Shown piece by piece: positions 21,759 through 59,793 of a stretch of 64,000 nucleotides of DNA. The position numbers were made by a program, and so were the translations under genes. The notes beneath the pieces were generated by a model, which searched no databases, had not been told where the DNA came from, and was given only the letters and a program-made list of their open reading frames with translations. The first letter of the stretch is position 1. Each line of letters opens with the position of its first letter. The stretch is from assembly GCA_000165345.1 (NCBI GenBank), contig CM000435.1, positions 512,001 through 576,000 on the forward strand, read 5' to 3'.

Positions 21759-23668
21759 CTATAACCTTTTCTGCTCATTTTTTCCATATTTCATAATGAT
21801 TTCTGAAACCTTGGGGTTGTTAATGGCTATGGACTTTAAAGAAAAAACTGCAGCTTCTCTTAATAGTGGGTGACTTTCATCAACAATAGTTGTACATTCA
21901 ATTAACATGCTGATTCCTTTAGGAAAAGTTAAGAGGTCTAAAATTATATTGAAAACTTACCATCTTGATTTTGAGAGAATGAATTTTGGAGTTGAACGTT
22001 CCCATAGCAAATTGTAGAAATTGCTTGAATAATTGAAGCCATAGAGATTTCCTCGCTGACTAGTTTCCATGTAGCTTTTATCTCTTCAACTATAATATGA
22101 TTGGGACAAATTAAATGTCTCCTAAACTTTAGCATGATTCTCAGCAAGTCTATAAGGCTAATATTGACTTTACTAAAGAAATCAATATTACTTTCATCTT
22201 TAGGGGTACTAATTCTTAAAACAGAAACCCATCCTTTAATATTACCAAGCTTTGATATGCTGAACTTTACTAAATTTTTATTTTCCGATTTTAAGGACCA
22301 ATCTTCAATCTGAAGATTAATAAATTGCTCTAAATAGGAAACTCCCACTTTTAATTCTGAAAGAATTGTATCGAAGATTCCATCTAGAAGGAAAATTTGA
22401 GATATTATATTTTTATCAACCAATTCCTGTACATTTTGTTTCAAGTTAGGATTAGTTTCTATTTCAACACAAATTTCAAGCAAACAGTCTTTAAATTCGT
22501 GTTCAGTTATAATAGAAGTCGAAAGGAGTTTTTGGAGAATAATAATTTCTTTTGTTATTTTCGCATCTGAAATATCTATATAATTATTTTCTAACATTGA
22601 TAATTTAACAAAAGGCTCCTGCATTGTTAGGTAAATAAGTGAAGCATCACATTCGATAGTAGACTCTTCGGAATGTTTATAAAAATATAAATCACGAAAT
22701 GTACATGGATTTTCGGATAGCAAATGCTTGAAAAAAAAGAATATCCATTCTGATGATTTTAAGTTCTGAATAGTCGTATGTTTCAGTGTGTTAAAATACA
22801 TCGAAATTGCGACAAAAATAAAACATCCAAATAGTTCTTTTTTACTTATAATCTCTTCCAAAGTAACTGGCCTGTTTTTAATTAAATTGTAAATAAGATG
22901 AAATGTGCATGCAACAGTAGATGTTTCAATATTAATGCCTTGCAAATGCCCTAGAGACAAAGAAATAAGCTCAAATAAATATATATTAATACAACCAAAT
23001 GGATATATTGTCTTAAACAAGTATTCCTGAAATTTTATTAATCATACGAGCTAACTATTTTGTTACTTACTTGATAATCTGTGTCACTGTCAATAGAAAT
23101 GTTCGCTAATATCTGTAGAAACCTGCAACTGAGAAGCAAGAACTCATTGAAATGATAAGCATTATAGGGCAAGCCTTCTGGGGATCGATGTTCTAATACT
23201 TTTAAAATTTCGTATGAAACTAGGCTTAATAGCCCCGTATTCTCTTCATTCCGGAATTTAATATATATAAAATAGTTCAAATTTTTGAATATCTTAGAAT
23301 TGGAAATTATCTTTCTATTTTCAAAAGAAATAGTTGATATATTTCTAATTATCCCCAGCAAAATAGATAATTCGGATAGGAGCTTTAATTCAATAGGAGT
23401 GAAGCCTTGTAGTTGAAAAGATTCTAGAATAACTTCAGTAAGTTCCAATATAGTCCCTAAATATTTTGAACATTGAAATAGTATAGCTTCTTCGCTAGCA
23501 GATCTCTATACAAAATAAGAGCAAATTATTTATCAATAAGCAAATAATTGGTGCTATAATTCAATATCTTACCTTTAATATTTCCTTTAATACATGAAAC
23601 GGATCACTTTCTTTTCTTCCAAAATAGAGCTTTAGCTCTTCCATGTAATCAAAATATTTCTTTTTCAT
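21759..23668 (-). CDS. ATXN10: Ataxin-10-like armadillo-type protein, four exons
   Basis: Exons 23668-23573, 23505-23071, 23026-21961 and 21916-21759, giving 584 aa. Introns are 67, 44 and 44 nt, all with GTAAGT donors. The last exon encodes ...GISMLIECTTIVDESHPLLREAAVFSLKSIAINNPKVSEII, which resembles the ataxin-10 homology domain. Confidence 0.6.
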
Positions 23669-38805: not shown

Positions 38806-39542
38806 ATGGTATGTCAAAAAAGTCCACTGAAGATTTTTATTATTAATTTGCAGGGTGTAGCTAAAAGAACTAGAAAATTTGCAGCGGTGAAACGCATTTT
38901 GAACCCCAATGATAGTAGAGTTAAACAGTAAGTTAACCAAGAAGTTCACTTTCAGCAAATATTTCAATTTCATGTAGAAATAAGCAAAGTAACAAAGTAG
39001 ATGCCCGCAATGATAGTAATGATAAACTAAGAGAAGTGTAAGTTTTAAAACTATTAAACCGTTCTTAATAATATTCCTTTAGGCCAAATGTACCTTCTAG
39101 CTTGTTTTTCAATTATAACAATAATTTGGGCCCTCCCTTCCACATCCTACTCGATACCAATTTTATTAACTTTTCTATACAGCATAAACTAGATATATTT
39201 AAGGGAACAATGGATTGCCTCGTAGCTAAGTGTATCCCTTGCATTACTGATTGTGTAATAGGGGAACTCGAAAAGATGGGTCACCGTTACAACTTGGCTT
39301 TGAAACTAGCTAGAGATCCCAGATTCAAACGTCTGCACTGTCTGCATAAAGGGACTTATGCGGACGATTGCATAGTGCAAAGAGTAACTGAACATAAATG
39401 TTACATAGTGGGAACGAATGATACCGAACTAAAGAGGCGCATACGTAGAATACCAGGCGTCCCAATAATGTATGTTACCAACCATAAATATTCGATTGAG
39501 AGACTACCGGAATCACTAGTCTCTGTTCCGCTGAAAAAGTAG
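38806..39542 (+). CDS. FCF1: rRNA-processing PIN-domain protein FCF1, four exons; exon 1 is the ATG only
   Basis: Exons 38806-38808, 38854-38927, 38978-39037 and 39083-39542, giving 198 aa. Introns are 45, 50 and 45 nt (GTATGT, GTAAGT, GTAAGT). The spliced product M|GVAKRTRKFAAVKRILNP...REVPNVPSSLFFNYNNNLGPPFHILLDTNFINFSI... is colinear with the 198-aa human FCF1 (recalled from memory). Confidence 0.85.
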
Positions 39543-57087: not shown

Positions 57088-58623
57088 ATGGCTGCTAATG
57101 AAAAATTTGATGTATTAAGATCTCCGCATTTTAAAAAACCAAAGTTTGGCTACGATGTCATTGAGATCTCATCTGATTCTTCTATTGAATCTAAATTAGG
57201 GGATATTTCTTCAAATAATTATCTTAAATTAGAAACACCAATTTATTTAAATAAACTCAACTTTGAAAAAAAAAATTTGAAAAATTTATCGTTTAAATCT
57301 TTGTTTGTAGTAAATGATTGCACACCTATTGAGAAATCAGTTTGGAGAATTAAACATATTTTATTTTCAAGTTATTTGGCAGATGTTAACTGGGTAATTA
57401 ATGAAATAGGGGATTCTGAGTTAATTTGTGAAAATATTGAATCCATACTTTTTGTTTCTCATGGTTTTGACAATCCACAAAATTATAAATTGAAAAATTT
57501 CAATAAAGTGAAAAACAAAAAGATTTCAACATATTCTCCATATCTGAAAGTTCCCTACGGCGTATTTCACCCAAAATTTATTTTATTAGTGTTTGAACAT
57601 CTAGTTCAGCCTAAAAAGAACTTTGTTAGGTTCGTTGTTACATCCGCCAATCTTATTCAACAGGACTGGGAGCTAAAGATACAATCAATATGGGTACAGG
57701 ATTTTTTCCATAGTATTGAAAGGAAAGATTGTGAATTCTTAGATTACTTACAAGAATTCCTAAAAAATATTCTTAATGGATCTAAACTGAAAGATTTTTG
57801 GCTGAGCAAAGTTCAAGAATTCAACTTCGAGGATGCAACCGTAAAATTAGTTGCTAGCGTTCCCGGCTATTTTTTTGGTGATGAGATGTTCATGTGGGGG
57901 CATCTTAGAGTTAGATCTTTGATAAAGAGATTTGTTTCAAAAGACCAAGATAAATCAGATGAATTAAGAGAAAAGCGAGAAAGAATTGTCCTTCAGTTTT
58001 CGAGTCTTGGAAGAATATCCGAGAAATGGTTATACACTGAGTTAGCTTCGTCGCTTTCAGAAATACCTGGAACTGAGCTTGAAATTATTTTCCCTACAGT
58101 TGAACAAGTTGTAAACTCGATAGAGGGAATTAATGGCGGTGGGTCTTTACCTGTAAAGAAAGAATATATTTGTAAACCTTGGATAAAAAAGTTACTCCAT
58201 AAATGGGGCACAGGAACTATGAAAAAGAATGCCACAGATGAGAAAGTAATACCTCACATAAAAACTTTTCTTAAATATAAAATATTTGGTAATGCTATTA
58301 AAATTATTTGGCTAGTCCAGGGAAGTTATAATTTAAGTAATGCAGCTTGGGGGCAAATACAAAAAGATGGATCTCAATTCTGCATTAGGAATTATGAGCT
58401 TGGAATATTTATTCATAAGGATCAGTTTGAATTTGAAAGGTATTTTAAACTTAATGAAGAATTTCCAAAGTTTTTTTGGAAAAGAAAAAGTAATTGTTCA
58501 TTAATTTCGGAGATAAATGCCAATCAACCTAATGTACTTTTGAATTTTCCTCTTCCTTTCAAGTTACCTCCGAAAAGATACTCGAATAGTGACCACCCTT
58601 GGAATATAGAGCTATTAATGTAA
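57088..58623 (+). CDS. TDP1: Tyrosyl-DNA phosphodiesterase 1
   Basis: 511-aa ATG ORF. Two HKN motifs of the PLD superfamily: GVFHPKFILLVF...VVTSANLIQQDW and IPHIKTFLKY...WLVQGSYNLSNAAWG. Confidence 0.9.
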   Translation: MAANEKFDVLRSPHFKKPKFGYDVIEISSDSSIESKLGDISSNNYLKLETPIYLNKLNFEKKNLKNLSFKSLFVVNDCTPIEKSVWRIKHILFSSYLADVNWVINEIGDSELICENIESILFVSHGFDNPQNYKLKNFNKVKNKKISTYSPYLKVPYGVFHPKFILLVFEHLVQPKKNFVRFVVTSANLIQQDWELKIQSIWVQDFFHSIERKDCEFLDYLQEFLKNILNGSKLKDFWLSKVQEFNFEDATVKLVASVPGYFFGDEMFMWGHLRVRSLIKRFVSKDQDKSDELREKRERIVLQFSSLGRISEKWLYTELASSLSEIPGTELEIIFPTVEQVVNSIEGINGGGSLPVKKEYICKPWIKKLLHKWGTGTMKKNATDEKVIPHIKTFLKYKIFGNAIKIIWLVQGSYNLSNAAWGQIQKDGSQFCIRNYELGIFIHKDQFEFERYFKLNEEFPKFFWKRKSNCSLISEINANQPNVLLNFPLPFKLPPKRYSNSDHPWNIELLM

Positions 58624-59235
58624 CTTAGAGCCAATTTTAAGTTTTTCAACTTCCTTGTACAGAGTAGCCAGCTCATTCTTATATAAGCTTACTAATCTCT
58701 CATGCTTGCACTTGATATCTACGCCATTATCTTTATTATTAGGGCATTCAGAGTATTTGGTATATTTGGAGCTAATCATTTCATTTATTATAGACCTCCA
58801 TTGAAATAAACGTCTATTTTTGCTGTTCTCCAAAACAGCCGTACTTTCTGGTTTGATTTTTTCAGGTGTTTTAGCAAATCCCGAGTTTGTATCGGCTAAT
58901 TCTGAAAAGTAACTTGCACTGGAAGACCTAGACTCTTTGGGTGTTGACTCATACTTCTCTATCTTTGCTAATAATTCGTGTATTAGCTCTTCACGTCTTT
59001 GAAGTTCTTGTAGAACTCTTTCAAACTCTTTTGCTATATGATCATCATTGTTTTCCTGGAACTTTATCTCTAATAATTCATCAGGCATCCAATATTTTTC
59101 CTTATATTTAGAGCAAATCAAATCAACATTTGAAAAATTCTGATTAAAAAGCAAACCTAACTCTTTCCTTATTTTGTACTGTTCCAATATCAGTTTACCG
59201 AACCTTATATCAATTTGCTCTTGATTTAAATTCAT
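58615..59235 (-). CDS. Coiled-coil protein, unknown function
   Basis: 206-aa ATG ORF with predicted helical heptads at both ends. Its stop region overlaps the TDP1 3' end by 9 nt. No family recognised. Confidence 0.45.
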   Translation of the reverse strand: MNLNQEQIDIRFGKLILEQYKIRKELGLLFNQNFSNVDLICSKYKEKYWMPDELLEIKFQENNDDHIAKEFERVLQELQRREELIHELLAKIEKYESTPKESRSSSASYFSELADTNSGFAKTPEKIKPESTAVLENSKNRRLFQWRSIINEMISSKYTKYSECPNNKDNGVDIKCKHERLVSLYKNELATLYKEVEKLKIGSKLH

Positions 59236-59372
59236 TTCTTACATTTTTTTTTAATAAATATTTTTTAGTACGTGCCCTCATTTTTGTACCCCAGTTCATG
59301 ATAAATGACCAAACAAGTTTCAAATAATAAACGTAGAAGAATAAAAGCTAAATTATAATAATTACTAATAAA

Positions 59373-59793
59373 ATGGTGAGTTGTCTTTGGAGAAAACAAT
59401 ATATAAGATCACTATTAAGCTAGATAGCAGGTAAATAAACTATTAAGGACATTTAGGCCTATCTTTGATAGGGTACTGGTACAGAGAATACATCCAAAAG
59501 CTGTCACGAAAAGCGGAATTTTACTTCCTGAGTCAATAAATAAGGGAGGCAAAGGTTTCTTTATGGCAAAGGTGTTGTCAACTGGAACTGGGAAAATAAA
59601 TCAGTTTACAGGTGAATATAATAAATGTCTCTTGAAACCCGGAGATACAGTGATTGTTCCAGAATATGGTGGAATTCATATTCAACAATTTTACGAAGAA
59701 GTTAATCATGGGACTTCATTAGATTTAATGGTTTATAAAGAAGAAGATATTTTGGGTATTTTTGAAAACGATAGTAAGAATAATGTCAATTAA
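59373..59793 (+). CDS. HSP10: 10-kDa chaperonin (Cpn10/GroES-type), two exons; exon 1 is the ATG only
   Basis: Exons 59373-59375 and 59431-59793, with a 55-nt intron GTGAGT...gatagcag; 121 aa. The product M|VNKLLRTFRPIFDRVLVQRIHPKAVTKSGILLPES...GDTVIVPEYGG...YKEEDILGIFE shows the GroES fold signature. The in-frame codon just upstream of exon 2 is TAG, so splicing is required. Confidence 0.8.

Follow-up and report, generated by a model that had tools for sequence, protein, structure and literature searches.

Comparative sequence evidence for a start-codon intron with a tandem acceptor in the Cpn10 gene of Cryptosporidium parvum

The Cpn10 locus and its reading frames

The window analysed here is a stretch of 64,000 nt of contig CM000435.1 (GenBank assembly GCA_000165345.1), and a gene for a Cpn10/GroES-type chaperonin lies on its plus strand. 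The locus belongs to chromosome 7, and 6,421 nt of it are identical to positions 609253-615673 of the C. parvum sequence CP141124.1, and the neighbouring locus tag is CPHLJ_7g2290. The organism is C. parvum; the original prediction had named Cryptosporidium as a possibility. The neighbourhood of the gene includes a Tyr-DNA phosphodiesterase gene, an eIF5-like gene and the gene for ribosomal protein L22e, besides a 412-aa ORF and a divergent 206-aa ORF that carries no annotation and lies 137 nt upstream. Regarding the Tyr-DNA phosphodiesterase (locus positions 716-2251, window 57088-58623), it is an unbroken 511-aa ORF in the window, and two C. parvum assemblies differ on its model, which has 511 aa in CP141124.1 and 475 aa in CM109967.1.

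The minus-strand upstream gene begins at 59235, and the divergent intergenic region (59236-59372, 137 nt) would contain the promoter and the 5' UTR of Cpn10. It includes two upstream ATGs, at 59298 and 59305, and an in-frame TAA at 59349-59351. A GTACCCC block at approximately 59286-59292, around 80 nt 5' of the Cpn10 ATG, is kept in all the aligned loci of intestinal Cryptosporidium while its flanks diverge, and it may be a promoter element common to both divergent genes.

The start codon, ATG 59373-59375, stands in the context ...ctaataaaATG and is directly followed by GTGAGT (59376-59381); it is the entire coding part of exon 1. Read without splicing, the frame from this ATG stops after 16 codons (MVSCLWRKQYIRSLLS). 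An AG at 59429-59430 closes a 55-nt interval (59376-59430), whose end reads ...GCTAGATAGCAG/GTAAATAAACTATTAAGG (here and below a slash marks an exon boundary). The frame that opens at 59431 with VNKLLRTFRPIFDRVLVQRIHPKAVTKSGILLPESINKGGKGFFMAKVL... encodes VNKLLRTFRPIFDRVLVQR...KSGILLPES... and runs to the TAA at 59791-59793, so that a methionine plus 120 codons make a protein of 121 aa. Exon 2 (59431-59793, possibly from 59428) holds the Cpn10 domain, as seen from its translation, its Pfam match, the identity by codon position and the predicted fold. Its first ATG is internal, at 59563-59565, and the ORF that begins there has 76 aa.

The codon directly 5' of 59431 had been described as TAG. 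Actually it is CAG (59428-59430), and the stop TAG in the frame of exon 2 (59425-59427) lies one codon further, that is, two codons 5' of 59431. The intron therefore ends in a tandem (NAGNAG) acceptor, TAG/CAG at 59425-59430, and a second in-frame junction, 59427/59428, is possible, both junctions being in frame and open. The distal acceptor CAG gives the 55-nt intron of the original prediction (59376-59430). The intron of the public C. parvum and C. hominis models runs from the GTGAGT to the proximal acceptor TAG (59376-59427, 52 nt).

We found the motif ATGGTRWGT 4 times in the window, counting both strands, against 1.33 expected. A match on the correct strand, no more than about 150 nt away from a conserved ORF that has no ATG, has a probability of around 0.002 by chance. 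One further match is the start of an Fcf1-like gene that is described below; the remaining two lie on the minus strand, at 21955 and 61675, and neither is a start codon. A strict scan of the window for ATG/GT with an ORF of 80 or more codons behind it found the Cpn10 gene alone; it missed the Fcf1-like gene because the exon 2 of that gene is short.

Conservation of the start-codon intron in Cryptosporidium

Orthologous loci were collected from eight named species (C. parvum, C. hominis, C. tyzzeri, C. meleagridis, chipmunk genotype I, C. canis, C. felis and C. andersoni) and from four further lineages present in SRA and ENA assemblies, which makes 12 lineages in all. Nine loci were aligned, namely those of C. 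parvum, C. hominis, C. tyzzeri, C. meleagridis, chipmunk genotype I, C. canis and three SRA/ENA lineages. All nine share ATG/GTGAGTT without variation, with introns of 53-55 nt. The C. felis equivalent is ATG/GTAAGT with a 53-nt intron. Furthermore, a Logan contig from SRR31860995 (L014, positions 109-177) has an ATG at 109-111 followed by an intron of 66 nt, GTAAGT...TTGCAG. The protein called on this contig (P0070, MQKSNII...) was considered as an intron-less orthologue and rejected, since it begins at a TTG within the intron and is an artefact of a prokaryote-style gene caller.

The C. andersoni locus (L012, LRBS01000086.1, positions 1501-1713) has a public HSP10 model with a first exon of two codons (ATGGCG), a weak donor GTATTC and a 207-nt intron, giving MA/VANIIK. 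An alternative for this locus is a consensus start ATG/GTACGT (1604-1612) inside that 207-nt intron, a branch-like motif TAACTAAC and a TCTTAG acceptor, which delimit an intron of 107 nt and give MVANIIK.... This ATG/GTACGT is the positional homologue of the start-codon intron of C. parvum, and the first exon of the deposited C. andersoni model is probably wrong.

Regarding the exon that follows, the first 44 codons of exon 2 showed in every comparison with C. parvum the highest identity at the second codon position, then at the first and then at the third; the values were 0.95, 0.86 and 0.64 at positions two, one and three for chipmunk genotype I and 0.84, 0.75 and 0.48 for C. canis. The coding constraint starts exactly at the proposed exon boundary, because this pattern holds from the first codon of exon 2. 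No ATG but the one ahead of the GT can serve as its start. The upstream DNA is far less conserved, and the intron is kept mainly at GTGAGTT, at a TAAG block and at its 3' end. The conserved 3' part (59413-59424) is a putative branch-site region. Across the nine loci the invariant positions there are T59413, TT59415-59416, AG59418-59419, T59421 and A59424, which suggests a putative branch point unusually near the 3' splice site.

An 8-mer, CTATTAAG, appears twice within 30 nt, at 59412-59419 in the intron and at 59441-59447 in exon 2, where it covers the codons L-L-R. CTATTAA is also present in the third intron of the Fcf1-like gene (around 39052), and such recurrences may have arisen by chance, the DNA being AT-rich.

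Protein family and fold

The spliced product matched the Pfam profile PF00166 (Cpn10) with 54 bits (E=1.7e-14; cut-off 21.1 bits) over profile positions 2-92 of 93. Its closest relative of solved structure is the human mitochondrial HSP10 (E=4e-13, around 35% identity), and with the 59431 junction the two N-termini align without gaps, residue 3 opposite residue 3. The mobile loop TKSGILLPES is aligned with TKGGIMLPEK of the human protein and is invariant or nearly so across Cryptosporidium. With this full-length profile match and the mobile loop, the product is by its sequence a member of the Cpn10/GroES family.

An AlphaFold model built with 40 homologues as input reached a pLDDT of 73.3. A Foldseek search with this model found 33 Cpn10/GroES chains at E<=1e-3 and no other folds among the matches. 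The best one was human HSP10 (4pj1, E=2e-9), the HSP10/GroES chains ranged from E=2e-9 to 1e-6 with probability 1.00, and the TM values were 0.59-0.75. The modelled product thus has the GroES beta-barrel fold.

At the N-terminus there are basic residues (K4, R7, R10) and no acidic residue before D14, and a helix is predicted with low confidence at residues 4-8. Mammalian HSP10 is imported by means of an uncleaved amphipathic N-terminal segment and characteristically has no cleaved presequence (PMC4221893). The basic N-terminal segment of the Cryptosporidium protein may resemble this targeting signal and is co-linear with the uncleaved targeting helix. Although mammalian HSP10 (HSPE1; PDB 4pj1, 6mrc) is the best match in sequence and fold, the mobile loop included (TKSGILLPE and TKGGIMLPE), the Cryptosporidium protein differs from it by two insertions (GKINQFTGEYNK; QQFYEEVNHGTSLD) and a C-terminal tail. 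Moreover, unlike the mammalian gene, the Cryptosporidium gene is not arranged head-to-head with Cpn60; its divergent neighbour is the unrelated 206-aa ORF.

Evidence for an exon consisting of the start codon alone

Taken as a question of sequence, the ATG-only first coding exon of Cpn10 is real and well supported, given the ATG/GT start, an acceptor that opens the frame and the conservation of both. Together with the coding signature, the Pfam match, the fold and the existing GenBank models, this bears out the central claim of the original prediction. We put the probability at about 0.93 that the gene consists of an ATG-only exon 1, a short start-codon intron with a tandem acceptor, and an exon 2, with a product of 121 and/or 122 aa. 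Exon 1 of the pre-mRNA would comprise the 5' UTR and the ATG at 59373-59375 alone. A phase-0 start-codon intron would then extend from the GTGAGT at 59376 to the tandem acceptor at 59425-59430, and splicing would join the ATG to exon 2 to give a protein of 121 aa (MVNKLL..., junction 59375/59431), of 122 aa (MQVNKLL..., junction 59375/59428), or both. We scanned JGI metagenome contigs for either spliced junction and obtained 0 matches. An exact look-up of the spliced products returned the 122-aa form from NCBI-type sources only, with neither the 121-aa form of C. parvum nor any transcript-derived copy from Logan.

Two other gene models were considered, in which the N-terminus of the protein is different. 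If there were no splicing and translation began at the internal ATG 59563, a protein of 76 aa would result. Such models are deposited for C. hominis TU502, UKH1 and TU502_2012 and for C. tyzzeri, and their product passes the Pfam threshold, although barely (24.3 bits against 21.1). However, it spans profile positions 37-92 only, in agreement with the original remark that a start at this ATG would delete the N-terminal strand and the mobile loop. The 44 codons 5' of 59563 hold precisely the first beta-strand and the Cpn60-binding mobile loop, they show amino-acid conservation and a coding pattern of substitution across all lineages, and the ATG/GT donor is invariant. Therefore, we regard this model as extremely improbable. 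Equally little credit is due to a longer upstream coding exon, with a presequence from ATG 59298 or 59305, or to a non-AUG start inside exon 2. The 137-nt intergenic region does contain these two ATGs, but they open short ORFs that stop before 59373, have no plausible donor and are not conserved in other species; the in-frame TAA at 59349-59351 also stands against an upstream coding exon, and mitochondrial HSP10 typically does without a cleaved presequence (PMC4221893).

Regarding other acceptors for the ATG-only exon, the AGs at 59418-59419 and 59422-59423 were discarded because they yield MLDSR and MIAGK followed by a stop, those at 59446-59447 and 59455-59456 because they are out of frame, and the in-frame AGs further downstream (exon 2 from 59485 or 59533) because conserved residues are lost.

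Phase-0 introns that separate codon 1 from codon 2, called start-codon introns, are over-represented and occur in short, lysine-rich, conserved proteins (Nielsen & Wernersson 2006, PMC1626468). The Cpn10 intron is like them in its position right after the ATG and in its short, lysine-rich and conserved host protein; it is unlike them in its origin, as that survey took vertebrates, arthropods, fungi and plants and left out the apicomplexans. We found no paper in the literature that describes start-codon introns in Cryptosporidium.

A second start-codon intron in the window

The original prediction had also pointed to a second ATG-only exon in the window, and it is there, in an Fcf1-like gene on the plus strand (start codon and intron 38806-38853, gene to around 39560). 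The ATG at 38806-38808 is followed by an intron of 45 nt, GTATGT...TTTGCAG, and the junction is in frame and open. Once this intron and two further ones are removed, the gene encodes an Fcf1/PIN protein of 198 aa (Pfam Fcf1, E=3e-33). The deposited QOY40546.1 has the identical sequence, so that this gene is already annotated. With a length divisible by three and no stop, the intron could be retained, or read through in a naive ORF call, without breaking the frame, and 15 extra residues (MVCQKSPLKIFIINLQ) would result. The intron-retained product was absent from the databases searched.

Status of the public annotation

By exact look-up, four C. parvum assemblies carry the 122-aa form (MQVNKLL...) as a deposited protein (QOY40558.1, WKS78929.1, WRK33412.1 and KAL5367557.1). 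The 122-aa form of C. hominis (OLQ17912.1 and KAL3127034.1, from two assemblies) falls in the same 90% cluster. In the deposited model the gene span is 421 nt and the CDS 369 nt, and the difference leaves an intron of 52 nt behind an exon 1 of the ATG alone. The C. parvum GenBank models (UniRef A0A7S7RF71, "10 kDa chaperonin") have the same locus, the same ATG-only exon 1 and the same exon 2 on identical DNA. However, they use an acceptor 3 nt upstream of the one originally proposed and thus have 122 aa instead of 121. Older entries look different: XP_628413 of Iowa II is "partial", lacks the methionine and begins with QVNK, and the models of C. hominis TU502, UKH1 and TU502_2012 and that of C. 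tyzzeri are truncations of 76 aa.

Thus, the start-codon intron of Cpn10 is not new: the reference annotations in current use already contain it, and its class is known. The original prediction had expected gene finders to miss this architecture systematically. That holds for the older models, which are truncated or partial, but current annotations contain both Cpn10 and the Fcf1-like gene, and the class has been published (PMC1626468).

The choice between the proximal and the distal acceptor

The two junctions differ by three nucleotides and their products by one Gln at position 2. The proximal junction sequence is ...AAAATGCAGGTAAAT (CTAATAAAATG/CAGGTAAATAAAC) and the distal one ...AAAATGGTAAATAAA (CTAATAAAATG/GTAAATAAACTAT, AAAATG/GTAAAT). 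There are four AGs in the last 13 nt of the intron (59418-59419, 59422-59423, 59426-59427 and 59429-59430), and the last two alone are in frame. A NAGNAG with both junctions open is limited to the clade of C. parvum, C. hominis, C. tyzzeri and C. meleagridis. We consider either junction about equally likely as the major one in C. parvum.

The comparative data speak for the distal junction (59430/59431) as the main or only one, with a protein of 121 aa (MVNKLL...) and the 122-aa models 3 nt off. In chipmunk genotype I, C. canis, C. felis and three of the SRA/ENA lineages (L005, L006 and L011) exon 2 is preceded by the triplet TAG, and the distal AG, the positional homologue of the one at 59429-59430, is the sole site that yields a protein. 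The contexts are ATAG/TAG in chipmunk genotype I, ACAG/TAG in L005, L006 and L011, CGT TAG in C. canis and AAA TAG in C. felis. In four of these six a proximal CAG or TAG is retained, and splicing to it would place a TAG stop directly after the ATG, so the spliceosome has to pass over that AG there. Of the two C. parvum sites, the distal CAG is the stronger and the proximal TAG the weaker. The out-of-frame AGs at 59418-59419 and 59422-59423 are tolerated, which fits a branch point at the invariant A59424, 6 nt from the distal AG; such a branch point would sterically exclude the proximal AG. Besides, C. meleagridis, whose acceptor sequence is identical to that of C. parvum, is annotated with MVNK, the chipmunk genotype I model is likewise distal, and it is with the distal junction that the Cpn10 N-terminus is co-linear with human HSP10. 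Nevertheless, the branch point at A59424 is a putative one, mammalian splicing generally prefers the proximal NAG, all the more with a purine at -4, the position of A59424 here (PMC3250501), and the proximal site was chosen in the C. parvum and C. hominis models of two annotation projects that use RNA-seq. Altogether we give the distal junction slightly less than an even chance. Of the original proposal to splice to 59431 and obtain a 121-aa Cpn10, the full-length open frame and the agreement with the sole productive site of six other species stand, while the public C. parvum models use 59428.

The proximal junction (59427/59428), with a main product of 122 aa (MQVNKLL...) in the parvum clade and the GenBank model right as deposited, has in our estimation an even chance. 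A lineage-specific change from T to C would have turned the last triplet of the intron from TAG into CAG and so opened the frame at the proximal site. All the 122-aa entries listed above, from C. parvum and C. hominis, use this site. According to Baptista et al., 100% of the annotated introns of C. parvum IOWA-ATCC are supported by RNA-seq (PMC8744675), and the re-annotation that doubled the number of introns demanded TopHat read support for the models that it changed (PMC4637869). The general preference for the proximal site at NAGNAGs (PMC3250501) points in the same direction. On the other hand, 59428 is the first codon past the in-frame stop, where the old "partial" XP_628413 began, and the newer models may have inherited this coordinate. 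Several of these entries were probably copied from one another and would then not be independent, and in the comparative data the homologous AG is unusable elsewhere. As a tandem acceptor, the Cpn10 intron is like those of Bradley et al. 2012 (PMC3250501) in having two in-frame YAGs 3 nt apart and isoforms that differ by one codon; it is unlike them in that the proximal site leads to an unproductive ATG-TAG in most other Cryptosporidium species, and dual use in C. parvum is putative.

A further reading, which we offer tentatively and consider rather unlikely, is that the distal AG is the conserved acceptor, with A59424 as branch point in a fused arrangement of branch site and 3' splice site. 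The acceptor of the C. parvum and C. hominis reference models would then have to move 3 nt downstream, or else there would be a clade-specific isoform with or without Gln2. Fused arrangements of branch site and 3' splice site occur in the introns of Giardia and Trichomonas. If true for Cpn10, such an arrangement would account for the tolerance of as many as three unusable AGs within the final 13 nt of the intron.

Meaning for Cryptosporidium and the Cpn10 family

The start codon reportedly ends the first exon of human HSP10 too (Hansen et al., 2003), and it is a possibility that the position of the start-codon intron is ancestral and common to animal HSPE1.

The locus would be the nuclear gene for a mitochondrial-type, that is, mitosomal, co-chaperonin Cpn10/Hsp10 of C. 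parvum, and the protein would cap Cpn60 in the mitosome. C. parvum has a Cpn60 partner, which localises to the mitosome; by 2018 the one other protein assigned to this organelle was mtHsp70 (PMC6282951). For Cryptosporidium Cpn10 we found no report of localisation in the literature. The mitosomal Cpn10 proteins of Giardia and Entamoeba are a similar case, a Cpn10 kept in a reduced mitochondrion-related organelle beside Cpn60 and mtHsp70 (PMC3044749, PMC9796589), but theirs were localised by experiment, whereas the mitosomal placement of the Cryptosporidium protein is a predicted one.

Regarding curation, several public Cryptosporidium proteomes still hold a truncated 76-aa or Met-less Cpn10, and the 76-aa form is without the Cpn60-binding loop. 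Furthermore, the right N-terminus is needed when Cpn10 is tagged or expressed for work on the mitosome, because this segment is the likely targeting signal.
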